Origin: Geopsychrobacteraceae bacterium
Lineage (GTDB): Bacteria; Desulfobacterota; Desulfuromonadia; Desulfuromonadales; Geopsychrobacteraceae
DNA: 64,000 nucleotides
Reading direction: 5' to 3'
NCBI GenBank assembly: GCA_963662315.1
Contig: OY759353.1
Location: 3,808,001-3,872,000, forward strand
The notes under the pieces were generated by a model. The model worked only from the letters and a program-made list of their open reading frames with translations, searched no databases and was not told where the DNA came from. The position numbers and the translations under genes are program-made. This document shows positions 43,110 through 58,413 of this stretch, piece by piece. Each line of letters starts with the position of its first letter. Within the stretch, counting starts at the first letter, position 1.

Positions 43110-43110
43110 G

Positions 43111-43146
43111 AAAAAGACCTCCCTGGCAAACTGGGGAGGTCTTTTT
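43111..43146. terminator. Bidirectional intrinsic terminator after pyk
   Basis: AAAAAGACCTCCC...GGGAGGTCTTTTT. Confidence 0.85.
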
Positions 43147-43187
43147 GTATTGATAGGGATACCAGATATACTGCAGGAGAAAATGTT

Positions 43188-43270
43188 TTGAATTCGATCA
43201 AAACTGTAGCCCTAGCGGATGGCACCAAAGTGCCCGCCCTTGGTCAGGAAACCTGGTATGTGGGGGGATG
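43188..43270 (+). pseudogene. Aldo/keto reductase N-terminal remnant
   Basis: KTVALADGTKVPALGQETWYVG resembles the AKR start (LGQGTW); similarity is lost after about 26 codons. Confidence 0.55.
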
Positions 43271-43786
43271 GCCGGCAGCAATTTATCCAGGTTCCTCTGG
43301 ATATTGTCTGGGTGTTGAAATATCTGTGCCTTCGTTTGCTGAGGGCATTGATATTACTGATATGCCCTATTTCATCCTGAAGCAGGCCGGTCATTTCCAA
43401 ACAAAAACTGCGCCCCTGATTTTCTGAGTTTGTCTTCCGTGACAACGAATCTAGCGCAGCACTCACTGACAATATGCTTGTTCAGCACAACACGCATAAC
43501 TATAATGGCACAGAACTTTCCGTGTTTGGTCCTTCAACCTTAAAACGGGATTCTGACAAAAGAGAGGGGTTTTTCCATTTATACCTCCAAATATCGGCAT
43601 AGCTGGAAAAATATCGATTTCAAAGAAACTGGAAATTATTTTCCATGTTTGAGTAAGAATATATTACTAGGTGGAAAATTCTCCAGTCTATAGACGCCTA
43701 TATATGGACTATTTTCCATCTATCAATACTGTTGGTAGTACCAATTAAAATAACGAAATTTTCATTTCTATTAAGGACAATTACTA

Positions 43787-44776
43787 GTGGGTAGTGAAGC
43801 AAAAATATCTGTCTTCTTCTCATGGCAATCTGATTCTTCTAACAAAACAAACCTTAGCTTGATTGAAGATTGTCTAAAGAAGGCAGTAAAAGAAATTTCT
43901 AAAGAAGAATCAATAATTGTCATCGTTGACAGAGACACAAAGGGGGTCGGTGGAACACCTAGTATAGTTGATGCGATTTTGAAAAAAATAAGAAGTTGCG
44001 ATGTATTTGTATGGGACGCAACGATAATTAACGATATGCCAAGACACACACCAAACCCTAATGTTCTTCTTGAACTTGGATATGCACTTGCAATTGTTGG
44101 GGAAGGGAGAATCATTGGGGTCATGAATGAAGCAAAAGGAAATGGCCCGGAAAAGCTACCATTCGATCTAGTGCATAGGCGTTGGCCAATTCGGTACCAA
44201 CTAGATGATTCTGACCCCAAGTTTGAAGAAAATAAAAAAAACACGAAAAATTTTCTTACAAGTACATTTGCAAGGGCACTCAGAGAAGCCATCAAAGAAC
44301 CCAAAATAGGAGCAGTCCATAGTGACATAGATTTTCTTACTGCGAAGGTTCTTTGGGGGTGCATTAATTCTACATGGGTGCAGAACTGGCTCATGTTTAG
44401 AAAAAACAACATTCAATACGATAAACGTGAATATCGTGACAAACTTGAAGATTATTGCGACATCGCCTCAAAGCCGGAAAATAGCTTTTCTGAAAATACC
44501 CTTGGGGAGTTGCACGGAAATTTGATCAATGCCATTCAGGGGTATCTATGGGCCGCTGCAGTTGAAATGGTTCCCTGTTTTGGCAATGAAGATGCCTACG
44601 TTATCAACGCCAAAGATCAAGCTCGGCAACATGGATGGATTGAGAATTATGACGAAATGTACGATCGACAAGTAGGAGAGCTGAGAAAAGGAATTAATGC
44701 AGTAGAAAATGCGTGGGATCTTTATGTGCAGAGTCTCCGGGTTAAATACCCAGAAATTACCCACGACTTAATGTGA
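43787..44776 (+). CDS. TIR-like / nucleoside-deoxyribosyltransferase-like N-terminal domain protein
   Basis: VFFSWQSD...DRDTKGVGGTPSIVDAILKKIRSCDVFVWD...PNPNVLLELGYA; low GC; C-terminal half unrecognised. Confidence 0.65.
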   Translation: MGSEAKISVFFSWQSDSSNKTNLSLIEDCLKKAVKEISKEESIIVIVDRDTKGVGGTPSIVDAILKKIRSCDVFVWDATIINDMPRHTPNPNVLLELGYALAIVGEGRIIGVMNEAKGNGPEKLPFDLVHRRWPIRYQLDDSDPKFEENKKNTKNFLTSTFARALREAIKEPKIGAVHSDIDFLTAKVLWGCINSTWVQNWLMFRKNNIQYDKREYRDKLEDYCDIASKPENSFSENTLGELHGNLINAIQGYLWAAAVEMVPCFGNEDAYVINAKDQARQHGWIENYDEMYDRQVGELRKGINAVENAWDLYVQSLRVKYPEITHDLM

Positions 44777-44809
44777 TGTTTCGAGGATTTAAAAAATTCA
44801 AAACTGCCA

Positions 44810-45012
44810 ATCGGGTAGCCGGGGGTTTTGCTCCCCCAGCCCCCACACCACCCGGCATGCGGGTCCGCACCGGGCGGTTCGATGAAACTACCGGGCCGTA
44901 GCCGGGTAATGTCGCTTCACCCACAGGTCTTTGACAGAAACTAAACCCTGATCCTTCAGCACTGGTTAGTCATGCCGGAATGGGCCGCCAGCCGGCGGGA
45001 CATGGCCCACGC
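44810..45012 (-). mobile_element. 3' remnant of a group IIC intron (end of IEP, domains V and VI)
   Basis: Minus strand: GAACCGCCCGGTGCGGACCCGCATGCCGGGTGGTGTGGGGG (DV) ... CCCCCGGCTACCCGAT (DVI and 3' end); preceded by the frameshifted IEP tail GMTNQ-LKDQGLVSVKDLWVKRHYPATAR*. Confidence 0.85.
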
Positions 45013-45030
45013 GGAGTTCCGGGGACAGGC

Positions 45031-45774
45031 GGAGTTCCGGGGACAGTATATAGATCTTTGACAAAGTCTTGTTTCCTGATAGTCTTTTTCTTATGGCAAG
45101 AATAGCACGAGTTATTGCACCGGGCTTGCCCCATCATGTAACGCAACGGGGCAACCGGCGGCAGACGACATTTTTTTGCGATGAGGATTTTCAGATTTAT
45201 ATCGATCTGATGGCTCATTGGTGTGCCAAGTATCATGTGGATATCTGGGCTTGGTGCCTCATGCCAAACCATGTTCATTTAATTGCGGTGCCAACAGATG
45301 AAGCCGGCCTGGCGCGTGCGATTGGTGAAGCGCATAGACGCTATACCCGACATATCAATTTCCGCCATGATTGGCGGGGTCATCTGTGGCAAGAACGTTT
45401 TGCTTCTTTCCCTATGGACGAAGCCTATCTGCTTGCCGCTGCGCGTTATATAGAAATGAACCCTGTCGCTGCAAACCTGGTCTCTGACCTTGGGCAGTAC
45501 CCCTGGAGTAGTGCGAAAGCGCACCTCAACGACCTGGATGATGGTCTGGTGAACCGCGCTCCACTATTGGATCTGGTTTCAGACTGGCAAAGTTTCCTGA
45601 AGTTAAGTAACGAAGAAGAACTGGAGATTTTGCATAAACATGAGAAAACAGGGCGACCACTTGGGAATTTGTCATTTGTTGAAAGTATCGAAGTTCTATT
45701 AGCACGGACATTGCGGCCTCTGCCACCAGGCCCTAAAAAGAATGATTAGTTCTATATACTGTCCCCGGAACTCC
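45031..45774 (+). mobile_element. RAYT (Y1 HUH transposase) element, copy 1, with 24-bp terminal inverted repeats
   Basis: GGAGTTCCGGGGACAGTATATAGA (45031-45054) and its exact reverse complement (45751-45774); no TSD. Confidence 0.85.
45093..45749 (+). CDS. REP-associated tyrosine transposase (Y1_Tnp), copy 1
   Basis: HHVTQRGNRRQ, CLMPNHVHL (HUH), RYIEMNPV (catalytic Tyr) and YPWSS motifs. Confidence 0.9.
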   Translation: MARIARVIAPGLPHHVTQRGNRRQTTFFCDEDFQIYIDLMAHWCAKYHVDIWAWCLMPNHVHLIAVPTDEAGLARAIGEAHRRYTRHINFRHDWRGHLWQERFASFPMDEAYLLAAARYIEMNPVAANLVSDLGQYPWSSAKAHLNDLDDGLVNRAPLLDLVSDWQSFLKLSNEEELEILHKHEKTGRPLGNLSFVESIEVLLARTLRPLPPGPKKND

Positions 45775-45777
45775 CCC

Positions 45778-45949
45778 CATGAGAAAACAGGGCGACCACT
45801 TGGGAATTTGTCATTTATTGAAAGTATCGAAGTTCTATTAGCACGGACATTGCGGCCTCTGCCACCAGGCCCTAAAAAGAATGATTAGTTCTATATACTG
45901 TCCCCGGAACTCCAGCTATATACTGTCCCCGGAACTCCCCCGGAACTCC
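45778..45949 (+). repeat. Stuttered duplications of the RAYT right end
   Basis: 45778-45913 repeats 45639-45774 (136 bp, 1 mismatch seen); further end copies at 45916-45938 and 45939-45949. Confidence 0.9.
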
Positions 45950-46058
45950 AGCCAATTTGATAGGCAGCCCCCTTCTCTGGGGTATATCGGTTCGCCCAAA
46001 CACCAAGTCCTCCGTCACTCTGGCCATGCGTAAATGATGGTTTAAGTTTGTTTGGAAC
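45950..46058 (-). pseudogene. Orphan toxin-tip fragment, possibly Tox-REase-5-like
   Basis: Frame beginning at GTTCCAAAC reads VPNKLKPSFTHGQSDGGLGVWANRYTPEKGAAYQIG and is cut by the RAYT end. Confidence 0.5.
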
Positions 46059-46090
46059 ATTTCTTTAGCTTAGAAATGTTCCAAACACAA

Positions 46091-46426
46091 TCAAACCTCT
46101 ACGAACTTATTCCCGCTATCAAAATGTTTAACCAATTCCTGTATTAGAAATTCGTAAACCGAATTTGATGCACTATCCGATGGCAAAAAATAGATTTTAG
46201 ATAAGTAATACCTTTTTCCTAAAGCATCATTAACCAGCTTCAAACCTGAAAGAACTTGGTCCAAAACCTGTGCAGAAGAAGTCCTCGCCTTCAAATCATT
46301 TTTAACATCCCATTCTACGACTTCTACAGCGGTTTCTTGTTCAGAAAAACTAACACCTAGAATGTTATCCTGAGAACCCGTCATCCGAGCAACTTTATAA
46401 ACGTTTCCATCTTTTACAAATTGCAT
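46091..46426 (-). CDS. Putative immunity protein for toxin 1
   Basis: 111 aa, low GC, TAATG overlap with the toxin 1 stop. Confidence 0.7.
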   Translation of the reverse strand: MQFVKDGNVYKVARMTGSQDNILGVSFSEQETAVEVVEWDVKNDLKARTSSAQVLDQVLSGLKLVNDALGKRYYLSKIYFLPSDSASNSVYEFLIQELVKHFDSGNKFVEV

Positions 46427-47475
46427 TATTCAACCCCCCAAGGAAAACCTCTCCAACGCCAATCAACTCTGTCATGAGCTTTGCTATAACCAGAATCATA
46501 TTTCAACTCATACCACCTTTCGGCAATTTCATGTTTCATCCATGTGATATCGGCGTCAGTATGTGTTCCGCTTTCTAAGCGCTTCCAAGCCTGAGCCTGC
46601 TCTATCGTACTATCAAATCTTCCTACCGTTGCCGGGATACCCTGATCCACATAACGATCCAGTAAATGCTCGTTATAGAAAACGTGATCTTTTACTTTTT
46701 GAATATTTCCAGGTTTGAAGCCTGTACTTGATGCAATTGCAGAAACATCTGAATCACTTGCCCTTATTGCATCATATAGATCATCTGCTGATGCCGTATA
46801 TCCTCCACCACCAGTTTGTTTTAGTGGTGAAGTGTTGTTTGCAATATAGCGACGTATCAGCGCTTGTTGTTCGCCACGCTCCAAACTGGAAATATCTGCT
46901 GGAATCATAATTGAATCAGCCTGATAACGCGAATACCAATTTGCAGCTGCCGCTTTTACTTGTTTATTCGTTTCCTCACCGGATTTCTTATCCGGCTTGG
47001 CCTGTTTTATTTCCTGTTTCTCAGTAGCTTTCAGACCCTGATTGTCCACAGTTTTGACAACATTCCTTGATAAAGATCTCTGCTGGCTGTGGGTTTGCGG
47101 GGCCATGATTTTACTATAAGCAGATGAGACTATTCCCTGCAGGTTTTCATATTGGTTTATTCCTGACAGGCTGGCGACCCAGCGGCCTTTTTGGGGATTG
47201 TTCGGGTAGTCAGGGTCCTGCTGCCAGTAGACGACCCCCAAGAAGGGGAGCTTCATAGAGTAGACGAGGCAGACTTCCATCTTGTCAATTTTTTTTAGCA
47301 GCTCATCAAGCCCCTGTTGATAATTGCGCCACTGGGCAGGAACGAATTCGTTTAGATTATGAATGCTGGTAAAACCGTCACAATAGGCGTCACGGACATC
47401 GTTTTTAGCGAAAAACGGATTGGAAATATACGGCAGGTCAGCAACCGTAATATCTCTGGCAGCAACAAGTCTCAT
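46426..47475 (-). CDS. Polymorphic toxin 1 (shared N-terminus, C-terminal HExxE...H-type domain)
   Basis: First about 135 aa nearly identical to the 49662 and 55642 ORFs; unique C-terminus KDHVF..H..RFD..AWKRL..KHEIAE..GYSKAH. Confidence 0.75.
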   Translation of the reverse strand: MRLVAARDITVADLPYISNPFFAKNDVRDAYCDGFTSIHNLNEFVPAQWRNYQQGLDELLKKIDKMEVCLVYSMKLPFLGVVYWQQDPDYPNNPQKGRWVASLSGINQYENLQGIVSSAYSKIMAPQTHSQQRSLSRNVVKTVDNQGLKATEKQEIKQAKPDKKSGEETNKQVKAAAANWYSRYQADSIMIPADISSLERGEQQALIRRYIANNTSPLKQTGGGGYTASADDLYDAIRASDSDVSAIASSTGFKPGNIQKVKDHVFYNEHLLDRYVDQGIPATVGRFDSTIEQAQAWKRLESGTHTDADITWMKHEIAERWYELKYDSGYSKAHDRVDWRWRGFPWGVE

Positions 47476-47987
47476 CGGTATCCCCCCTCAAGGATAAAAT
47501 AAGTTGCTATAAGAAATAACTATCTGGAAAGTTTTAATGAGAGGAGAGGATAGCGTTTTTTTAGCTTGAGTCAAGATGTTTAGCAGGAATTTTAAGGGCG
47601 GTCTTTTCAACTCGGGATCAATTTTCAGAAGTTATCTTAGATAAAATCACATCAAAACCGCCGGGTCCCGGCCCGGCAGCCGGATTCATTTTTTCCAGCG
47701 ATGAAAAAACGAATCAAAAAAATCTTTTAAGGTCAAACACACTGACGATAGTCGATTCGGTCTACACTTTATCGTTGCTACCAGCAGTGAACAGCCCGCC
47801 CAACGATGCTATTGCATCCATGGGCAGAACCGAATTAAAGTGAATACATAAAAATGCCAACGGCATTTTTGCGGTTCTGGCCATCAGGCGCGTATTGCGC
47901 TTACTATTTGTCGCCCGCTTGGGACAAATAGTAAGGCGTTGTGCGGGGCGCAACACCGCGACCGTGCTTGTTTCATTTCAATCATAG
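47476..47987. repeat. Upstream non-coding region of the toxin unit, copy 1 (truncated, with an internal deletion)
   Basis: Near-identical to 50799-51633 and 56782-57615; contains hairpin repeats and a minus-strand TTGACT-16-TATCCT promoter-like sequence at 47547-47574. Confidence 0.9.
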
Positions 47988-48731
47988 GGAGTTCCGGGGA
48001 CAGTATATAGATCTTTGACAAAGACTTGTTGCCTGATAGTCTTTTTCTTATGGCGAGAATAGCACGAGTTATTGCACCGGGCTTGCCCCATCATGTAACG
48101 CAACGAGGCAACCGGCGGCAGACGACATTTTTTTGCGATGAGGATTTTCAGATTTATATCGATCTGATGGCTCATTGGTGTGCCAAGTATCATGTGGATA
48201 TCTGGGCTTGGTGCCTCATGCCAAACCATGTTCATTTAATTGCGGTGCCAACAGATGAAGCCGGCCTGGCGCGTGCGATTGGTGAAGCGCATAGACGCTA
48301 TACCCGACATATCAATTTCCGCCATGATTGGCGGGGTCATCTGTGGCAAGAACGTTTTGCTTCTTTCCCTATGGACGAAGCCTATCTGCTTGCCGCTGCG
48401 CGTTATATAGAAATGAACCCTGTCGCTGCAAACCTGGTCTCTGACCCTGGGCAGTACCCCTGGAGTAGTGCGAAAGCGCACCTCAACGACCTGGATGATG
48501 GTCTGGTGAACCGCGCTCCACTATTGGATCTGGTTTCAGACTGGCAAAGTTTCCTAAAGTTAATTAACGAAGAAGAACTGGAGATTCTGCATAAACATGA
48601 GAAAACAGGGCGACCACTTGGGAATTTGTCATTTGTTGAAAGTATCGAAGTTCTATTAGCACGGACATTGCGGCCTCTGCCACCAAGCCCTAAAAAGAAT
48701 GATTAGTTCTATATACTGTCCCCGGAACTCC
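47988..48731 (+). mobile_element. RAYT element, copy 2, with 24-bp terminal inverted repeats
   Basis: TIRs at 47988-48011 and 48708-48731. Confidence 0.85.
48050..48706 (+). CDS. REP-associated tyrosine transposase, copy 2
   Basis: Near-identical to copy 1; intact HUH and Tyr motifs. Confidence 0.9.
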   Translation: MARIARVIAPGLPHHVTQRGNRRQTTFFCDEDFQIYIDLMAHWCAKYHVDIWAWCLMPNHVHLIAVPTDEAGLARAIGEAHRRYTRHINFRHDWRGHLWQERFASFPMDEAYLLAAARYIEMNPVAANLVSDPGQYPWSSAKAHLNDLDDGLVNRAPLLDLVSDWQSFLKLINEEELEILHKHEKTGRPLGNLSFVESIEVLLARTLRPLPPSPKKND

Positions 48732-49101
48732 CGGTCAGATAGAGCGGTCGTCGAAAGGCAACGATCTCCATCGCCGCTTTGCAGCGCGGGCAGCGGAACA
48801 CCGGTCGTGATCGCACGGGAATCGGTTCGAGCATGACGCGCAGAACGTACTGTACCAAACGCAGAGTTCTTTTGGCGTTACCGTGCAGAAAACCATAATC
48901 CCGCACCCGGCGAAACCCTTTTGGGAGAACATGCTGGAGGACCAGCCAGAGAAAGTCTTCCCCCTTCAGGGTGAGGGTCTGCTCTTGCTGGGTCTCGCTG
49001 TCGCGATAGCGGAAAGTCACCTTTCCTTTTTGGCAGGAGATGATGTTGTTCTCGGCAATCACACCGCGATAGAGGTAGCGCGACAGATATTTCAGGGCCG
49101 T
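48732..49101 (-). pseudogene. IS91-family (Y2) transposase C-terminal fragment
   Basis: ALKYLSRYLYRG, VTFRYRD, FLWLVLQHVLPKGFRRVRDYGFL and CPRC motifs; bounded on both sides by RAYT end motifs. Confidence 0.8.
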
Positions 49102-49116
49102 GGAGTTCCGGGGACA

Positions 49117-49241
49117 TCCATTTCTTTATTAGTAATCCCTTTTTCCTGCTTGAGGGCCATCAAGGATTCAAACTCTGCGCTTGCCAATGACCTTAGCTGA
49201 TCTGCTTGCTGAGAGTTAACGAGTAGCCTACTGTTTGGAAC
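49117..49241 (-). pseudogene. Orphan toxin-tip fragment (same tip as 55012-55220)
   Basis: VPNSRLLVNSQQADQLRSLASAEFESLMALKQEKGITNKEM, cut by GGAGTTCCGGGGACA at 49102-49116. Confidence 0.65.
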
Positions 49242-49244
49242 AAC

Positions 49245-49652
49245 CTACAATTCGATAATCACCTCAGAGTTAAATGATTCAGGCATTTGAAGAAATCTTC
49301 TCCATGCAGTAACTACGGCCTTAAATTCAGCAAGTGAAAATCTTCCTTCTGGCTGCCCAACCCATTCATCATTTACATTTATATCAACTTGAATACCATT
49401 TTGGGAAATTAAGACATCCACGTCATTTCCTTCTATATCAGACTCACTTTCGTGCCCTTCCTCTATCATTTCAACTTCAGCCAATACTCGATCACAATCA
49501 TCAATAGACTGAGCAATGCAACTTAAAATATTGGCGAGATATCGCTGATATCTCGCCACATCCTGACCATCTATAAACTCCTGGCACTGATGATAAACTT
49601 GTCCCAACACAGGATGGTTTCCACCATCAGCATAATAAAGCTTTAACTTCAC
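49245..49652 (-). CDS. Putative immunity protein for the EndoU toxin
   Basis: 135 aa, acidic, immediately downstream of toxin 2, GAGGTG RBS. Confidence 0.72.
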   Translation of the reverse strand: MKLKLYYADGGNHPVLGQVYHQCQEFIDGQDVARYQRYLANILSCIAQSIDDCDRVLAEVEMIEEGHESESDIEGNDVDVLISQNGIQVDINVNDEWVGQPEGRFSLAEFKAVVTAWRRFLQMPESFNSEVIIEL

Positions 49653-49661
49653 ATTGCACCT

Positions 49662-50798
49662 CTAAGGTTTCTTTGGCGTTTGATATACCGGATAAACAGT
49701 TGTTTTTGGTGAAATCCAACCCTCGACTTTGACACCGGAAGGCGTAACTGAAATCCACTTATCACCTTGAACAATCTTATTCGGGTCATTCCAAGCTGCA
49801 TCAACTTCTGTTTTAACACGGATTTCATCCCAACCTTTGGGAAACATCGTATTAGTAGAATTATTGCTAGTCTTAGTTATCCACTGTCCCGGATTCGCCG
49901 GATCGGGAACTTGAATCGTAGCTTTATATACATCTGCAACATCAGGCACCGATTCAGTTCTGGGGACAATTCGGACATCACCGTAGAGCAAAGTATGACC
50001 GCCAGTCGGTTTACCTTTTTTCGTGTAGTCAGCTTTCAATACGTGATCAAAATCTACTGGTGATTGCTGAACGTACTTGTTTGGAACAACTATCTCACCA
50101 GCAGATGATACTACAGGCCCCATCGAAAGTCCAAGCCCAGCTCTCAAACCACCAGCGGTCAACGCTGTGCCAACAACGTCATTTGTCTCAGCAGGCGTCT
50201 GAGAAAGTCGCATGCTGTAGGTACTTGCAAAGTCAGTTTGCTTAAATGCAGTAGCCTCTTGCAATACTTGATCGCCTCTTTCGGTCTCCTCAGGCCTTGC
50301 CATCACCTGCTTCTGGCCCAAAAAATTGCGTCTGCCGCCTTTGACACTGTTCTCAAACCCTTGGTTGACCACCGCTTTGGCTGTGCTGCTTTGCAAAGAT
50401 CTCTGCTGGCTGTGGGTTTGCGGTACCATGATTTTACTGTAAGCAGATGAGACTATTCCCTGCAGGTTTTCATATTGGTTTATTCCTGACAGGCTGGCAA
50501 CCCAGCGGCCTTTTTGGGGATTGTTCGGGTAGTCAGGGGCCTGCTGCCAGTAGACGACCCCCAAGAAGGGGAGCTTCATAGAGTAGACGAGGCAGACTTC
50601 CATCTTGTCAATTTTTTTTAGCAGCTCATCAAGCCCCTGTTGATAATGGCGCCACTGGACAGGAACGAATTCGTTTAGATTATGAATGCTGGTAAAACCG
50701 TCACAATAGGCGTCACGGACATCGTTTTTAGCGAAAAACGGATTGGAAATATACGGCAGGTCAGTAACCGTAATATCTCTGGCAGCAACAAGTCTCAT
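49662..50798 (-). CDS. Polymorphic toxin 2 with a C-terminal bacterial EndoU nuclease domain
   Basis: Shared N-terminus; after VVPN: FDHVL...TGGH...K...NTMFPKGW...TVYPV. Confidence 0.8.
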   Translation of the reverse strand: MRLVAARDITVTDLPYISNPFFAKNDVRDAYCDGFTSIHNLNEFVPVQWRHYQQGLDELLKKIDKMEVCLVYSMKLPFLGVVYWQQAPDYPNNPQKGRWVASLSGINQYENLQGIVSSAYSKIMVPQTHSQQRSLQSSTAKAVVNQGFENSVKGGRRNFLGQKQVMARPEETERGDQVLQEATAFKQTDFASTYSMRLSQTPAETNDVVGTALTAGGLRAGLGLSMGPVVSSAGEIVVPNKYVQQSPVDFDHVLKADYTKKGKPTGGHTLLYGDVRIVPRTESVPDVADVYKATIQVPDPANPGQWITKTSNNSTNTMFPKGWDEIRVKTEVDAAWNDPNKIVQGDKWISVTPSGVKVEGWISPKTTVYPVYQTPKKP

Positions 50799-51633
50799 CG
50801 GTATCCCCCCTCAAGGATAAAATAAGTTGCTATAAGAAATAACTATCTGGAAAGTTTTAATGAGGGGAGAGGATAGCGTTTTTTTAGATTCAGTCAAGAT
50901 ATTTAGCAGGAGTTTTAAGGGCGGTCTTTTCGACTCGGGATCAATTTTCAGAAGTTATCTTAGATAAAATTACATCAAAACCGCCGGGTCCCGGCCCGGC
51001 AGCCGGATTCATTTTTTCCAGCGATAAAAAAACGAATCAAAAAAATCTTTTAAGGTCAAACACACTGACGATAATTGATTCGGTCAACGTCTAATCGTTG
51101 CTACCCGTAGTGAACAGACCGCCCAACGATGCTGCGCATCCATGGGCAGAACCGAATTAAAGTGAGTACATAAAAATGCCAACGGCATTTTTGCGGTTCT
51201 GGCCATCAGGCGCGTATTGCGCCGTCGGCCGGCTGGTTAGATGCTGGATGTTCCTTTGGAGAGACGAAGCCCGAGTACGGACCCTTTAAAGAAGGGCGTT
51301 TTGTGCTTACTATTTGTCGCCCGCCTGGGACAAATAGTAAGGCGTCGTGCGGGGCGCAACACCGCGACCTTGCTTGTTTCATTTCAATCATAAAAGACAA
51401 CACCACCGGGTCCCGGCCCGGCAGCCGGATTCATTTTTTCCAGCGATGAAAAAACGAATCAAAAAAAATCTTTAGGTCAAACACACTGACGACAATTGAT
51501 TTTCGGTCTACGCTTATTCGTTGTTACGAGCAGAGAACAGAACGTCTGACGATGCTGTCGTATCAATAGACAGTGGAAGCTCATGGTCCTAATCCATAAA
51601 TTAACCAAGACTCACCGTTTTGGAGTTGTTGTG
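50799..51633. repeat. Upstream non-coding region of the toxin unit, copy 2
   Basis: Near-identical to copies 1 and 3; two CCGGGTCCCGGCCCGG hairpin modules at 50984 and 51406. Confidence 0.9.
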
Positions 51634-52318
51634 GGAGTTCCGGGGACAGTATATAGATCTTTGACAAAGACTTGTTGCCTGCTAGTCTTTTTCTTATGGC
51701 GAGAATAGCACGAGTTATTGCACCGGGCTTGCCCCATCATGTAACGCAACGGGGCAACCGGCGGCAGACGACATTTTTTTGCGATGAGGATTTTCAGATT
51801 TATATCGATCTGATGGCTCATTGGTGTGCCAAGTATCATGTGGATATCTGGGCTTGGTGCCTCATGCCAAACCATGTTCATTTAATTGCGGTGCCAACAG
51901 ATGAAGCCGGCCTGGCGCGTGCGATTGGTGAAGCGCATAGACGCTATACCCGACATATCAATTTCCGCCATGATTGGCGGGGTCATCTGTGGCAAGAACG
52001 TTTTGCTTCTTTCCCTATGGATGAAGCCCATCTCCTTGCCGCTGCGCGTTATATAGAAATGAACCCTGTCGCTGCAAACCTGGTCTCTGACCCTGGGCAG
52101 TACCCCTGGAGTAGTGCGAAAGCGCACCTCAATGACCTGGATGATGGTCTGGAGAACCGCGCTCCACTATTGGATCTGGTTTCAGACTGGCAAAGTTTCC
52201 TAAAGTTAAGTAACGAAGAAGAACTGGAGATTTTGCATAAACATGAGAAAACAGGGCGACCACTTGGGAATTTGTCTTTTGTTGAAAGTATCGAAGTTCT
52301 ATTAGCACGGACATTGCG

Positions 52319-54944
52319 GAGGGTGTAAAATCCTTTGTGTAAATAGACCCAGTCGGTTACAACCCGTAACCACTGGAGGAACCACAGATGTCTATACCTG
52401 ACGACCTGCTTGATAGCCTGATGAAGGACTACAAAAACCCTGAAGATCTCATTGGGGAAACCGGGCTGCTGAAACAACTGACAAAAAAACTTTTGGAGCG
52501 GGCGATGCAAACCGAGATGACCGATCACCTCGGCTATGAAAAAAACGCTCCGACTACTAATAAATCCGGCAATACTCGTAACGGAAGTTACCAGAAAAAG
52601 ATCAAGGGTGAGTTTGGAGAACTTGATATTTCTGTTCCCCGAGACCGGGATGCCAGCTTTGAACCAGCTATCCTCCCCAAAGGGCAAAGCCGATTTTCTG
52701 GCTTTGATGATAAAATCATCGCTTTGTATGCTCGCGGCATGACCACCCGCGACATCCAGGCACACTTGGAAGAAATCTATGGGGTTGAGATTTCACCGAC
52801 GCTGGTTTCTCAGGTAACCAAGGCTGTTCAGGAGGAGGTTGTTCTGTGGCAGAATCGCCCCCTTGATGATGTTTGGCCAATCGTCTACCTTGATGCTCTT
52901 CGCGTCAAGGTTCGGCAGGATAACCGAGTCATAAATAAAGCTGTCTATCTTGCTGTTGGTGTCAATCTTGACGGCGTGAAAGAGGTTCTAGGCATGTGGA
53001 CTGCCGAGAATGAAGGAGCCAAATTCTGGCTGCAGGTCGTCACCGAATTGAAGAACCGTGGGGTCAAGGATATCTTCATTGCCTGCGTCGACGGACTGAA
53101 GGGATTTCCTGAAGCGATAGAGGCCGTCTTCCCGAAAACGCAGGTTCAGCTCTGCATCGTCCATATGGTTCGGCACAGCCTGAACTACGTCTCTTGGAAA
53201 CAACGCAAGGAAGTCGCTGCCGACTTAAAAACAATCTATTCAGCGGCGACACTGGAGGAGGCTGAGTACCACCTGGAACTCTTCGGAGATAAATGGGATT
53301 CCAGCCATCCTACAATCAGCAAATCATGGCGAAACAACTGGGAGCGGATTACTCCGCTGTTCTCTTATCCGCCAGAGATCCGAAAGGCAATTTACACGAC
53401 CAACGCCATTGAGTCGGTAAATATGTCGTTGAGGAAGGTAATGAAGAACCGAGGTTCGTTCCCCAATGACGAGGCCATGTTTAAGCTGATGTATCTGGCT
53501 TTACAGAATATTGCCAAGAAATGGACAATGCCGATCCGTAACTGGCGATCGGGTAGTGTTCAAAATTCTGTGTCAATTCGTTACTATCATCACAACCAAA
53601 GGAATGACACATGACTCAACCCAAAATCACCTTCGATCTAGACGCTGCTCTTGCGGCCTTGCGTGAAGGCAAGGATCTCAACGGCAAAGACGGGATTCTC
53701 ACTCCGCTGATCAAGCAGCTTACAGAAGCCGCCATACAGGCCGAACTTGATGAGCACTTGGCCAATGAGGAAGGCCCGAATCGCAAAAACGGTAAAACGT
53801 CAAAAACAATCAAGTCCCTCTCGGACAGTTTTATTCTTGATACTCCGCGTGATCGCGCCAATACCTTTGAGCCCCAGCTGGTTAAAAAAAATCAGACTCA
53901 GCTTACCGATGAGTTGGAGCGGAAAATCATTGCCCTGTTTGCTCTTGGTACGAGCTATCAGGATATTCGGCAACATGTCTCCGACATGTATGGAATTTCC
54001 GTTTCCAACGGCACAATTAACGCCGTAACCGACAAGCTCTTGCCGGACCTGCAAGCCTGGCGAGAGCGCGATCTTGAAGCGATTTATCCGATCCTCTGGC
54101 TGGACGCTATCCACTACAAGGTCAAGGAAAACGGCCGTTATATCGGTAAGGCGATCTACACCATCCTGGGCCTGAACATCGAAGGCAAGAAAGAGCTTCT
54201 CGGACTCTATCTCTCCGACAATGAAGGGGCACACCACTGGTTAAGCGTTCTTACCGATCTGCATAACCGCGGGGTACAGGACATTTTGATCGCATGTGTC
54301 GATGGCCTCAAGGGTTTCCCCGAAGCTATCGAAAGCATCTATCCGAATACTGAAATCCAGCACTGCGTCATCCACCAGATTCGCAATTCGATCAAGTATG
54401 TAGCCTCAAAGAATCAAAAGGCCTTCATGGCTGATCTGAAGTGTGTCTACAAGGCAGCGACCCTCAACGCAGCGGAGCTGGCTTTGGACGACTTGGAATC
54501 GAAATGGGGTGAGAAGTATCCCATGGTCATTAAGTCTTGGCGCAGTAAATGGCCGACCTTATCCAACTATTTCAAGTACCCCGATTACGTCCGGACAGCC
54601 ATCTATACCACCAATGCTGTGGAGGCGGTTCACCGACAGTTCCGCAAACTGACCAAGACAAAGGGTGGCTTCGCCAATGAAAACAGCTTGCTGAAGCTGC
54701 TTTACGCTGGCATACTCAAGGCCTCCGAGCGTTGGACACATCCGATTCAGAACTGGAATCTGACGCTGGCTCAGCTGACCATCCATTTTCCGGGTCGGCT
54801 GGAAAAACATCTCAGTCTATGAGCCTGACACAGAATCCTGAACACCCTCGGCGATCGGCACTGAATCAGTTTTCGATTATATTTGAAGGGCGGATGCCAC
54901 TGCTCTAACCGACGGGGCATTTACACAATCTGCTTTACACCCTC
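52319..54944 (+). mobile_element. IS256-family element (outer); transposase 52388..54908 disrupted near its C-terminus
   Basis: IRL GAGGGTGTAAAATCCTTTGTGTAAAT and matching IRR ending at 54944; 8-bp TSD ACATTGCG at 52311 and 54945; VPRDR, CVDGLKG, QLCIVH and TTNAIE motifs. Confidence 0.93.
53552..54849 (+). mobile_element. IS256-family element (inner) with intact transposase 53611..54822
   Basis: IRL GGTAGTGTTCAAAATTCTGTGTCA and IRR TGACACAGAATCCTGAACACCCTC; 8-bp TSD GGCGATCG at 53544 and 54850; TPRDR, CVDGLKG and TTNAVE motifs. Confidence 0.93.
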
Positions 54945-55011
54945 ACATTGCGGCCTCTGCCACCAGGCCCTAAAAAGAATGATTAGTTCTATATACTGTC
55001 CCCGGAACTCC

Positions 55012-55220
55012 TCCGGCATAAAACCTTGTTGATTGTTGCGGTGAATCTGCGAGATTTTTCCTGTTTTCAGATCCATTGCAACGGAAAGTGCAGGCCCCAT
55101 TTCTTTATTAGTAATCCCTTTTGCCTGCTTGAGGGCCATCAAGGATTCAAACTCTGCGCTTGCCAATGACCTTAGCTGATCTGCTTGCTGAGAGTTAACG
55201 AGTAGCCTACTGTTTGGAAC
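55012..55220 (-). pseudogene. Orphan toxin-tip fragment, possibly the start of a YwqJ-like deaminase
   Basis: VPNSRLL...KEMGPALSVAMDLKTGKISQIHRNNQQGFMP, cut by the RAYT right end; no proper start or RBS of its own. Confidence 0.6.
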
Positions 55221-55222
55221 AA

Positions 55223-55642
55223 TCAATTATTTACATTCAAACACGATGGAATTTTTCCGTTTGTCTTTAAAAAGCTTAAACATATTTCGCGAACAGTCTC
55301 TATATCATCAATTAAGCTCCGATCATTCTGAAATTGTCCCAATATAGCGATATTTTTAGCATCTTTATCTGGGTTATATAATCGGTAAATTAATCGATCT
55401 CCTTCAGAGTCAACTTCGCTACATTCCACATAACATTTCCCTGCATCACAACTTACGTTAAGACTGCATTCGCCAGGCTCATCTTCCTCTCCTTTCCAAA
55501 GGGATAGAAAGCCATTATTTGAGTACACCGAATCTAACCGTGCAAAAACTTCTCTTTCAGTTGGATTTTTCAGCATTGTACTTTGGTTCCGTTCTCCAGA
55601 GGGTGAATAAACAAACCCTCCTATGCTCAGTTGTTCGATCAT
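55223..55642 (-). CDS. Putative immunity protein for the deaminase toxin (Imm1-like)
   Basis: 139 aa, TAATG overlap with toxin 3; acidic, C-terminal D.E.V.E....F...G pattern. Confidence 0.72.
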   Translation of the reverse strand: MIEQLSIGGFVYSPSGERNQSTMLKNPTEREVFARLDSVYSNNGFLSLWKGEEDEPGECSLNVSCDAGKCYVECSEVDSEGDRLIYRLYNPDKDAKNIAILGQFQNDRSLIDDIETVREICLSFLKTNGKIPSCLNVNN

Positions 55643-56781
55643 TATTCAGCCTTTGACTTAATAATTTTAAACTTGCTCATACCTGGCTCCCAATAATAAG
55701 TTTTCGGGAGGCCCGTTTTATTACTTAAAGAACGAACAGTTAAACTAGTGTATTCGTCTTTAATTGCAGCTTGCACAAGATCTTTTTGGCAAAAACCACA
55801 AACATCAAGACCATCTACATCCATTACAACATTTGAACCTTTCCCAACACCGGAATTTCGAATTTGCTGAGCCACTCCGATTTCAGCATGAGCATTTGCC
55901 ATATTGCTATTTGGATACCCACCTTCTCGTAGAGGTTTAGCCTCAACGAATTCTGAAATAAACGTTTTCTGATTCGCATCCGCTCCCAATCTAAGAGTTG
56001 GATTGATATCTTCAAATAGTTGATCGCCTACTTTTGCTCGAGCTCTAACAGATAATTCAGTGTTTGGAACCACTCTTCCACCAGCAGATGATACTACAGT
56101 CCCCTTCGAAAGTCCAAGCCCAGTTCTCAAACCACCAGCGGTCAACGCTGTGCCAACAACGTCATTTGTCTCAGCAGGCGTCTGAGAAAGTCGCATGCTG
56201 TAGGTACTTGCAAAGTCAGTTTGCTTAAAAGCAGTAGCCTCTTGCAATACGTGATCGCCTCTTTCGGCCTCCTCAGGCCTTGCCATCACCTGCTTCTGGC
56301 CCAAAAAATTGCGTCTGCCGCCTTCGACACTGTTCTCAAACCCTTGGTTGACCACCGCTTTGGCTGTGCTGCTTTGCAAAGAGGCCTGCTGGCTGTGGGT
56401 TTGCGGTACCATGATTTTACTGTAAGCAGATGAGACTATTCCCTGCAGGTTTGCATATTGGTTTATTCCTGATAGGCTGGCGACCCAGCGGCCTTTTTGA
56501 GAATTGTTCGGGTAGTCAGGGTCCTGCTGCCAGTAGACGACCCCCAAGAAGGGGAGCTTCATAGAGTAGACGAGGCAGACTTCCATCTTGTCAATTTTTT
56601 TTAGCAGCTCATCAAGCCCCTGTTGATAATTGCGCCACTGGGCAGGAACGAATTCGTTTAGATTATGAATGCTGGTAAAACCGTCACAATAGGCGTCACG
56701 GACATCGTTTTTAGCGAAAAACGGATTGGAAATATACGGCAGGTCAGCAACCGTAATATCTCTGGCAGCAACAAGTCTCAT
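55642..56781 (-). CDS. Polymorphic toxin 3 with a C-terminal nucleic-acid deaminase-like domain
   Basis: Shared N-terminus; after VVPN: PNSNMANAHAEIG...VCGFC (HxE...CxxC zinc motif). Confidence 0.8.
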   Translation of the reverse strand: MRLVAARDITVADLPYISNPFFAKNDVRDAYCDGFTSIHNLNEFVPAQWRNYQQGLDELLKKIDKMEVCLVYSMKLPFLGVVYWQQDPDYPNNSQKGRWVASLSGINQYANLQGIVSSAYSKIMVPQTHSQQASLQSSTAKAVVNQGFENSVEGGRRNFLGQKQVMARPEEAERGDHVLQEATAFKQTDFASTYSMRLSQTPAETNDVVGTALTAGGLRTGLGLSKGTVVSSAGGRVVPNTELSVRARAKVGDQLFEDINPTLRLGADANQKTFISEFVEAKPLREGGYPNSNMANAHAEIGVAQQIRNSGVGKGSNVVMDVDGLDVCGFCQKDLVQAAIKDEYTSLTVRSLSNKTGLPKTYYWEPGMSKFKIIKSKAE

Positions 56782-57615
56782 CGGTATCCCCCCTCAAGGA
56801 TAAAATAAGTTGCTATAAGAAATAACTATCTGGAAAGTTTTAATGAGAGGAGAGGATAGCGTTTTTTTAGCTTGAGTCAAGATGTTTAGCAGGAATTTTA
56901 AGGGCGGTCTTTTCAACTCGGGATCAATTTTCAGAAGTTATCTTAGATAAAATCACATCAAAATCGCCGGGTCCCGGCCCGGCAGCCGGATTCATTTTTT
57001 CCAGCGATAAAAAAACGAATCAAAAAAATCTTTTAAGGTCAAACACACTGACGATAGTCGATTCGGTCTACACTTTATCGTTGCTACCAGCAGTGAACAG
57101 CCCGCCCAACGATGCTATTGCATCCATGGGCAGAACCGAATTAAAGTGAATACATAAAAATGCCAACGGCATTTTTGCGGTTCTGGCCATCAGGCGCGTA
57201 TTGCGCCGTCGGCCGGCTGGTTAGATGCTGGAGGTTTCTTTGGAGAGATGAAGCCCGAGTACGGACCCTTTAAAAAAGGGCGTTTTGTGCTTACTATTTG
57301 TCGCCCGCCTGGGACAAATAGTAAGGCGTTGTGCGGGGCGCAACACCGTGACCGTGCTTGTTTCATTTCAATCATAAAAGACAACACCACCGGGTCCCGG
57401 CCCGGCAGCCGGATTCATTTTTTTCCAGCGCTGAAAAAACGAATCAAAAAAATCTTTAAGGTCAAACACACTGACGATAATTGATTCGGTTTACGTTCTA
57501 TCGTTGCTATCAGCAGTGAACAGACCGCCCAACGATGCTGTCGTATCAATAGACAGTGGAAGCTCATGGCCCTACTCCATAAATTAACCAAGATTCACCG
57601 TTTTGGAGTTGTTGG
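56782..57615. repeat. Upstream non-coding region of the toxin unit, copy 3 (most complete)
   Basis: Hairpin modules at 56967 and 57390; 13-bp perfect stem at 57290-57325. Confidence 0.9.
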
Positions 57616-57810
57616 GTAAATAATATCTCAAAAGAGTCAGAGATTGGTCAGAAATCACCTATATAATGGATTAATTGGCAATATGAGAAGCCTGATCGAA
57701 GACTTTCATTCGGTGGGCATTAAAATTTTTAATATTATATGTGAGGTGTAGAGATTCATGGGATTCAGGTTTTTCTACAGACTCGTTAGCTTTACCATCA
57801 AGGAAGTCAC

Positions 57811-58227
57811 ATGCAATTTGAAGAACAAGTATTCATCGCCGCATCTGCTGAAGAGGTGTTCAGGTTGTATGCTGACGTAAGCAGCTGGTCTACATGGGAT
57901 ACTGAGGTAAAAGCATCTTCCATTGACGGGGTATTTGCTTCTGGTGTCAATGGTCAGCTTCAGCCTACTAAAGGACCAAAAGCAAAAATTACCATCACAG
58001 AAGTGTTTTCCAACTACTCGTTTACGGTAGAAAGTAAGCTCCCTTTGTGCATTATGCTCTTTGAACATGAACTTTCGAAACGTTCGGGGGGTACGAATGC
58101 CTTGCATCGAATAAGCTTTGAAGGTTTGCTTTCACCTTTGTTCGGTTGGCTTATTGGCTCTCAAATTCGGAAAGGGCTGCCGGGTACGTTGCAGGGCCTG
58201 AAGCAGGTTGCCGAACAACAAAGCTAA
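57811..58227 (+). CDS. SRPBCC / polyketide cyclase-like protein with gene-cassette-like boundaries
   Basis: I.AS.E.VF..Y.DV..W..W pattern; flanked by GTTAGCT (57785) and AGCTAAC (58222) containing the stop codon. Confidence 0.8.
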   Translation: MQFEEQVFIAASAEEVFRLYADVSSWSTWDTEVKASSIDGVFASGVNGQLQPTKGPKAKITITEVFSNYSFTVESKLPLCIMLFEHELSKRSGGTNALHRISFEGLLSPLFGWLIGSQIRKGLPGTLQGLKQVAEQQS

Positions 58228-58413
58228 CAAGTTTTGTTGGGGGGCTGGCGGGCCTTTACCTGACCGGTTTTCAGGCGCACTGTGTCTCCAAATCGGCCGC
58301 TACATTTGGAAGATTGACCCTCTTCCATAATCTTAAATTGTTCATTTACAGATATTATTCCTTTGGCCATGCTATAACGAAAAGAATCATCAGCAATGGA
58401 AAGGATCTTCTCC

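Follow-up and report, generated by a model that had tools for sequence, protein, structure and literature searches.

Positions 45013-57615 of a 64,000-nt window of contig OY759353.1 (the window being the whole stretch of DNA that was analysed, in a genome that consists of one contig of 4,709,195 bp) hold a genuine island of polymorphic toxins and immunity genes, in which the toxins share an N-terminal domain that is undescribed. Three toxin-immunity pairs alternate there with three RAYT-type Y1 transposase elements. Coordinates are window positions unless marked as genome positions. The reading that we favour, and regard as probable, is that of an island of orphan polymorphic toxin-immunity cassettes whose tips have been recombined, with the RAYT as a co-resident mobile element. 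The island provides a new N-terminal domain that is a candidate for delivering polymorphic antibacterial toxins and is represented by eight paralogues in one genome, and what appears to be the replacement of a tip between conserved flanks, caught in two adjacent duplicated units.

A first-pass annotation of this DNA had described a unit recurring three times, and this description stands: the RAYT stretch is present in three copies of 98-99% identity, at spacings of 2957 and 3646 bp, and there are three sets of a toxin open reading frame (ORF) and a small ORF 3' of it, the small ORF being different in each unit. The same annotation read the constant N-terminus and swapped tips as a polymorphic toxin system, which is borne out by an EndoU tip, a deaminase tip and a Rhs/PAAR/VENN-associated tip, each with a different small gene. 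Its description of the units as near-identical is correct for the RAYT and the toxin N-terminus, whereas unit 1 differs in linker class and right end.

A rare N-terminal domain shared by eight toxins

The toxin ORFs all lie on the minus strand, at 46426-47475 (toxin 1, 349 aa), 49662-50798 (toxin 2, 378 aa) and 55642-56781 (toxin 3, 379 aa). Residues 1-133 are common to all three, and units 2 and 3 share residues 1-240; toxin 1 is made up of the common N-terminal domain, a short linker and an unnamed tip. Toxin genes that share this N-terminus number eight in the genome, at four chromosomal sites, with three of them in the window, and their first 400 bp are 93-99% identical at the DNA level. 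Each of the eight has a start codon of its own and is preceded by a 177-bp leader (47476-47652, minus strand, in unit 1), which contains a promoter-like site and is found in eight genome copies, one ahead of each toxin gene and only at these genes.

The N-terminal domain belongs to no Pfam or NCBIfam family. Its AlphaFold model (17 sequences, mean pLDDT 79) matched no solved structure in Foldseek at E ≤ 0.001, and the best Z in the VIA wide comparison was 3.2. No VENN pre-toxin, Rhs repeats or other known N-terminal trafficking domain was detected in the eight toxins (Pfam, E ≤ 0.01), and the domain was found in none of 60 relatives, including six genomes of the same genus. When 5.8 billion clusters were searched by word index, only the genome's own proteins and one metagenomic protein at 62% identity (P0008), which bears PG_binding_1 and CHAP, came up. 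The domain is very rare, as a profile search of 1.84 billion representatives returned 19 proteins at E ≤ 1e-3 (five from this genome and 14 distant), with the match at the protein N-terminus in all 19. Tips are recognisable in two of the distant homologues, WHH/Colicin-DNase in P0016 and PT-TG in P0014, and distant relatives of the domain occur in uncultured Gammaproteobacteria. This front end most likely defines a new polymorphic effector class, and, like MIX, RIX and PIX before it, the domain could be used as a marker in the search for effectors and novel toxic tips.

The closest likeness in layout is to the type VI cargo effectors of the PIX class (and also of the MIX, FIX, RIX and WHIX classes), which have an N-terminal domain of about 130-140 residues, varied tips and an immunity gene next to the toxin gene; as in the PIX class, these are orphan genes remote from the type VI cluster. 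Unlike the PIX class, the N-terminal domain here has neither a Pfam or NCBIfam family nor a solved fold, and the two are likened by description, not by sequence. Transposases are frequent neighbours of PIX effectors according to the work that described them (10.1101/2023.07.16.549128).

Tips and candidate immunity genes

Toxin 2 ends in an EndoU tip (EndoU_bacteria, 2.6e-12, residues 249-371) and toxin 3 in a deaminase tip (Deam_C, 3.1e-36, residues 242-372), both of which are Pfam toxin-tip families. Toxin 1 matches no Pfam family, and the label 'HExxE-type' that the first-pass annotation had given it goes back to the string HEIAE, with no family behind it. The toxin 1 tip has 45 relatives at E ≤ 1e-3 in a set of 268 candidate proteins. 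They include proteins named at source as Rhs core and VENN pre-toxin, as well as PF05488 and PF06255 proteins, and the tip is therefore a genuine toxin tip that is widely shuffled. It gave 0 matches at E ≤ 1 against PDB sequences, and the leads in the ESM Atlas were weak (best 0.94, an unnamed cluster, with a Pyocin_S cluster at 0.92).

The small genes that follow the toxins are candidate immunity genes, also on the minus strand. They are located at 46091-46426 (111 aa, no Pfam family, assigned by its position right after toxin 1), 49245-49652 (135 aa, likewise without a family) and 55223-55642 (DUF6911, 1.2e-13). Outside the window, the paralogue at genome 349208 has a weak RNAse_A_bac match, that at genome 4210935 has RNAse_A_bac and is followed by a CdiI_2 gene, and that at genome 4213098 has Colicin-DNase/WHH and is followed by a DUF6985 gene; those at genome 3991904 and 4206673, which are loci C and D1, match no Pfam family. 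The immunity-type families recognised 3' of the toxins are thus DUF6911, CdiI_2 and DUF6985.

Orphan cdiA-CT/cdiI pairs, Rhs tip-immunity arrays and Neisseria maf islands are built of tandem modules in which a conserved upstream stretch permits tip replacement, and mobile-element debris lies around them. The present array resembles them in its tandem tip-immunity modules, its conserved upstream stretch and its mobile-element debris, and has tips and immunities in common with them (RNAse_A_bac, CdiI_2 and EndoU, with the toxin 1 tip found on VENN and Rhs proteins). It differs from them in that each cassette is a complete gene with its own start codon and leader, and is not 5'-truncated behind one large gene.

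As a separate observation, an orphan DUF6985 immunity-type gene without a toxin is present at genome 4216352-4216816, where it adjoins a repeat array and is separated by 3 kb from the 4.21-Mb toxin cluster.

Probable replacement of tips between conserved flanks

Starting with the first base of the left repeat, units 2 and 3 agree over the RAYT, a 126-bp flank, the toxin linker and N-terminus, the leader, and the repeats as well as the tail; only the tip and the immunity gene set them apart. The match ends in a 60-bp tail (...CCAAGACTCACCGTTTTGGAGTTGTTG) that occurs at these two places only. The 126-bp flank, of which the genome has only two copies, starts at the stop codon of the immunity gene and represents the beginning of a further gene on the minus strand. 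The first 126 bp of this gene (49118-49243) are retained in unit 2, where it is cut by an IS91 fragment, and are 99.2% identical to 55097-55222 in unit 3, where the gene is cut by the RAYT end (55015-55226, the 5' part of a 101-aa ORF running into that end). The 'orphan tip' that the first-pass annotation had placed in each unit is not one: it corresponds to the 126 bp just described in units 2 and 3 and to a tandemly duplicated RAYT 3' end (45778-45913) in unit 1, where the duplicate and extra end fragments together occupy 45778-45950 on the plus strand. Unit 1 has another linker class and another right end, and only units 2 and 3 are whole-unit duplicates. On this comparison of sequences, units 2 and 3 are a duplicated unit in which the tip would have been replaced between two conserved flanks.

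The three toxin copies of the window are 97.0-98.0% identical among themselves (98.0% between units 1 and 2), and that of unit 3 is 99.0% identical to the dispersed locus D3. As identities inside the window are no higher than those to dispersed paralogues, the array is not a recent en bloc triplication, and the paralogues exchange sequence.

In the mechanism that we propose, each toxin would join the rare, unnamed domain (about 130 residues) to an exchangeable tip through a linker, of which there are two classes, and its cognate immunity gene would follow. Homologous recombination between conserved flanks would exchange the tips, with the N-terminus and linker as one flank and, in units 2 and 3, the start of the downstream gene as the other; the eight paralogues, spread over four chromosomal sites, could act as donors and recipients. 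One whole unit may have been duplicated to give units 2 and 3, after which the tip and immunity gene would have been replaced. The RAYT would share dispensable islands rich in repeats and insertion sequences (IS) with IS256, IS110, IS481, IS91 and intron remnants, and would not be a built-in component of the toxin, and its copies may supply homology for rearrangements.

Contigs from another organism (run X5) also bear on tip exchange. The toxin 5' region (47197-47522, 326 bp) is contained in them with 2 differences and the RAYT-side flank of unit 1 (45778-46072, 295 bp) with 1, and they have a loose end inside the toxin (56273). Neither tip 1 nor immunity 1 is present in these contigs, where uncovered parts carry no evidential weight (as is the case for run X6). 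Taken as contigs, they hint at a different tip between the same flanks in that organism.

Support for the assembled array

Three tandem copies of near-identical DNA could in principle be a product of assembly, and the repeats are bridged by no contig in four runs; the absence of bridging contigs carries no evidential weight, and the order of the units is that of the assembly. The unique tip-immunity DNA of each unit is found in short-read contigs from two same-organism samples with 0 differences. In run X1 the depths over the three tip-immunity stretches are 478, 498.7 and 494.7, as for single-copy DNA, and that of the RAYT contig is 1897, about fourfold, which fits four copies. With these depths, and with the genome in a single 4.71-Mb contig, it is extremely improbable that the triplication is an artefact.

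The RAYT as a probable mobile element

RAYT element 1 (45028-45777, plus strand) has a Y1 ORF at 45069-45749 (Y1_Tnp, 6e-14) and 30-nt inverted repeats at 45028-45057 and 45748-45777 that are 93% complementary; the inverted repeats enclose the transposase only. Element 2 is located at 47988-48734 (plus strand, ORF 48026-48706). Element 3, on the same strand, is broken at 52319/52320 by an IS256 element that carries a second IS256, and consists of a 5' part (51634-52319, ORF from 51672) and a 3' remainder that includes the right inverted repeat (54945-55014). The RAYT scores 52.7 bits with Y1_Tnp (cut-off 23) and 75.9 bits with REP_Tyr_transpos, just under the NCBIfam cut-off of 80, and at 18.3 bits does not reach the transpos_IS200 cut-off of 55. 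Its translation contains HVH and RYIEMNP motifs.

The genome has four full RAYT copies, 98.3-99.1% identical over 686 bp, and a fragment at genome 679192. One of the four, at genome 3420208, is free of toxins and is as similar to the tandem copies (98.8-99.1%) as these are to each other. A copy in another genus has 97.2-98.0% DNA identity, whereas genomes of the same genus hold only relatives of about 45%, which points to horizontal transfer. The four near-identical copies in this genome and the near-identical one in another genus are not the behaviour of a single-copy, vertically inherited (domesticated) gene. All 13 genomic occurrences of a 16-nt core of the ends are at RAYT copies; no genome-wide population of repetitive extragenic palindromic (REP) sequences or REPINs was found, and the RAYT ends fold no better than shuffled sequences (z 0.02, -1.14, 0.71 and -0.80). 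With an end motif confined to its own copies and ends that fold like shuffles, this is a RAYT without the REP population and hairpins that define a REPtron. No common target sequence or target duplication was found at the four copies, whose left flanks all differ. The RAYT is probably, judging from these features, a compact, recently mobile, horizontally transferred, IS-like element with plain inverted repeats of 27-30 bp.

In these properties the element behaves like the IS-like Group 1 RAYTs (PMC5581495): near-identical duplicates on one replicon, signs of horizontal transfer and, here, a score just under the REP_Tyr_transpos cut-off. The flanking 16-mer, found 13 times here, averages 12 occurrences in Group 1 (Bertels, Gallie, Rainey 2017, PMC5581495). 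The present RAYT has plain inverted repeats and no significant hairpin, and it is likened to Group 1 by features, not by phylogeny.

In relatives (G006, G004, G017, G046 and G001), genes of this RAYT family often lie in groups of 2-4, within 1-26 kb, among ordinary genes (TRAP transporters, cytochromes and a Pel polysaccharide operon). The source genome also contains a fusion of Y1_Tnp with a DnaA_C helix-turn-helix (genome 2500467-2501522), which lies by the genes for RNase G, L21, L27 and Obg and looks domesticated, as well as three further Y1_Tnp-DnaA_C fused genes or remnants.

Association between the RAYT and the toxins

A Y1 gene or fragment is located 0-2895 bp from each of the eight toxin modules in the genome, and 8 of the 15 Y1 genes or fragments fall within 3 kb of a module, a zone that makes up 0.97% of the genome. 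The Y1 genes at the toxins belong to four lineages of 37-48% mutual identity, with their own tight inverted repeats and a common GGGGAC core. The linkage that the first-pass annotation had claimed holds inside this genome, where no module is more than 2.9 kb from a Y1, and breaks down elsewhere. None of six distant loci with homologues of the toxin N-terminus holds a Y1_Tnp (0/52 ORFs), in a scan that started from a six-sequence alignment and in which several contigs were short and one locus offered the full 10 kb on both sides. Conversely, no polymorphic-toxin or immunity family is present near 17 RAYT genes at eight loci in relatives (0/129 ORFs), and the neighbours there are TRAP transporters, the Pel operon, cytochromes, other IS and one HipA kinase. 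Other IS are also concentrated around the toxins: of about 34 loci, 6 lie no more than 5 kb from one, a zone of about 1% of the genome, and part of the local enrichment is a general junkyard effect of IS-rich islands. No description of a RAYT or IS200 pairing with polymorphic toxins was found, as judged by titles and abstracts and with subscription journals outside the coverage. A dedicated RAYT-toxin system is not supported by these observations, which include the check on linkage elsewhere that the first-pass annotation had set for its own proposal, and the association is a local one. The RAYT may nevertheless amplify or remodel the toxin module, as the first-pass annotation suggested.

Several observations weigh against a RAYT that is simply co-resident and, more broadly, against the reading that we favour. 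Y1 genes are present at all four toxin sites and at about one in 12 toxin-free repeat arrays, and 6 of 10 intact Y1 genes are near toxins versus 6 of 34 other IS (Fisher p 0.015, for copies that are non-independent). The outer base of the RAYT left repeat is the exact starting point of both unit 2 and unit 3, and both end at a tail made up of a hairpin plus GGAGTTGTTG, of which the first six bases (GGAGTT) repeat the start of the inverted repeat; a unit made by the transposase would have this appearance. Outside the question of the RAYT, the cognate immunity role of the small genes is deduced from their position, with two of the three in the window lacking a family, and the argument for the type VI route is one of co-occurrence.

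The RAYT could accordingly be pictured as a working partner, in which a Y1 HUH enzyme would sometimes use a surrogate downstream end (the hairpin and GGAGTT tail) and so copy or move the RAYT, immunity gene, toxin and upstream region as a unit, building arrays and seeding sites. Hairpin ends are what known Y1 transposases use. The proximity of all eight modules to a Y1, the involvement of four RAYT lineages, and the identical left and right ends of units 2 and 3, with a tail seen only there, speak for it; clusters of RAYTs 1-13 kb apart around other genes in relatives would fit the capture of cargo between copies. Yet the junctions of unit 1, of the solo copy and of locus C differ from those of units 2 and 3, the RAYT ends fold like shuffles, the six-base match was spotted post hoc, and outside this genome the pairing is found at none of the six toxin loci and none of the eight RAYT loci. 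Moreover, the toxin 5' regions are 93-99% alike whereas the nearby RAYTs are 37-48% alike, which argues that the toxins have not long travelled with them. Taken together, we consider a working partnership doubtful. A more far-reaching proposal, which we consider very unlikely, is that Y1 HUH transposases of several lineages and the 423-455 bp repeat described below form a single-strand recombination platform that both copies and reshuffles toxin-immunity units with defined ends (the left repeat, and the downstream hairpin and GGAGTT as surrogate site). If true, HUH enzymes would here serve bacterial weapons in the way in which integrons or ISCR elements capture genes. The four Y1 lineages beside all eight modules are a concrete lead as to whether single-strand HUH enzymes contribute to the amplification of weapon cassettes. 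The cassette island with recombining tips and a co-resident RAYT remains the reading that we favour.

Delivery route

The genome contains a complete type VI cluster (genome 18.7-46 kb) with TssA, B, C, E, F, G, J, K and L, Hcp, ClpV and two VgrG, and TssC is present in four of five other genomes with distant homologues of the N-terminal domain. By analogy with MIX, FIX, RIX and PIX, this domain would load the toxin onto the type VI secretion system, and the toxins are probably type VI cargo.

It is also conceivable that the toxins are not type VI cargo and exit in a phage-tail-like particle or are released like bacteriocins. None of the eight is adjoined by a type VI gene, and the paralogue at genome 349208 directly follows a tail-sheath gene and a gp19-type tube gene. 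Against this, orphan effectors far from the cluster are the rule in the PIX class, according to its description (10.1101/2023.07.16.549128), and the type VI cluster is complete here, with TssC in most of the domain-bearing genomes. No Baseplate_J was found in the genome and there are only two tube genes, so that no complete contractile particle is evident. A route other than type VI is, on balance, unlikely.

The phage-type sheath and gp19 tube genes that precede the paralogue lie at genome 346260-348398, and a 1250-aa ORF without a family follows. The second tube gene stands alone beside another repeat array.

The leader and the 423-455 bp structured repeat

The upstream hairpin region, which the first-pass annotation had treated as part of the toxin unit, is composed of two parts. 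The 177-bp leader is indeed specific to the toxins, whereas the rest consists of copies of a genus-wide repeat of 423-455 bp, which is not toxin-specific. This repeat gives 83 BLAST segments in the genome, often as tandem arrays among small accessory genes (for example genome 284655-286843, 1037307-1046215 and 4241900-4243486), and is present in all six same-genus genomes, among which G003 gave more than 90 matches. When 15 copies were aligned, 13 of the 77 pairs in the consensus fold had compensatory changes on both sides; Rfam, searched at E ≤ 1 over 44700-58000, returned nothing for the upstream hairpins.

In unit 1 the repeat is represented by a copy at 47653-47986 on the plus strand (repeat positions 1-247 and 321-417). 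In unit 2 the upstream region (50799-51633, plus strand) is made up of the leader (50799-50975), 1.4 repeat copies (50976-51573) and the 60-bp tail ending ...GGAGTTGTTGTG. That of unit 3 (56782-57614, plus strand) has the leader, 1.4 repeat copies (56959-57556) and a tail of the unit 2 type, and abuts unique chromosome at 57615.

A general tie between the RAYT and the 423-bp repeat arrays was also considered and rejected, as about 11 of 12 toxin-free arrays are without a Y1 gene.

Other mobile elements and the chromosomal slot

The IS256-family element that interrupts RAYT element 3 lies at 52320-54944 on the plus strand, with the second IS256 nested at 53544-54849 (Transposase_mut, 3.7e-123 and 9e-92). 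In runs X5 and X6, from two other organisms, contigs join 53543 to 54850 across the inner element (1306 bp), so the outer IS256 exists without the inner one in those organisms; at the inner joint, 9 bases fit on either side. The IS91-family transposase fragment of unit 2 (48735-49117, minus strand) retains the C-terminal part only (Y2_Tnp, 8.7e-19; transpos_IS91 below the cut-off).

The island lies between a pyruvate kinase gene and a carbon-nitrogen hydrolase gene (43110-58330). This slot measures 15.2 kb here, about 24 kb in G001 and 1.3-1.4 kb in G002 and G003, both of the same genus, where it has no homology to 43110-58330; from these differences in size between species, the island occupies a variable slot. 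Its left edge carries a remnant of a group II intron domain (44810-44879, minus strand; Rfam RF00029, 43.8 bits against a gathering score of 40, E 5.5e-6). On the left side of the island, a 329-aa ORF (43787-44776) has a weak match to a CAP12/Pycsar TIR domain (21.5 bits, cut-off 24.7) and may be a defence gene.

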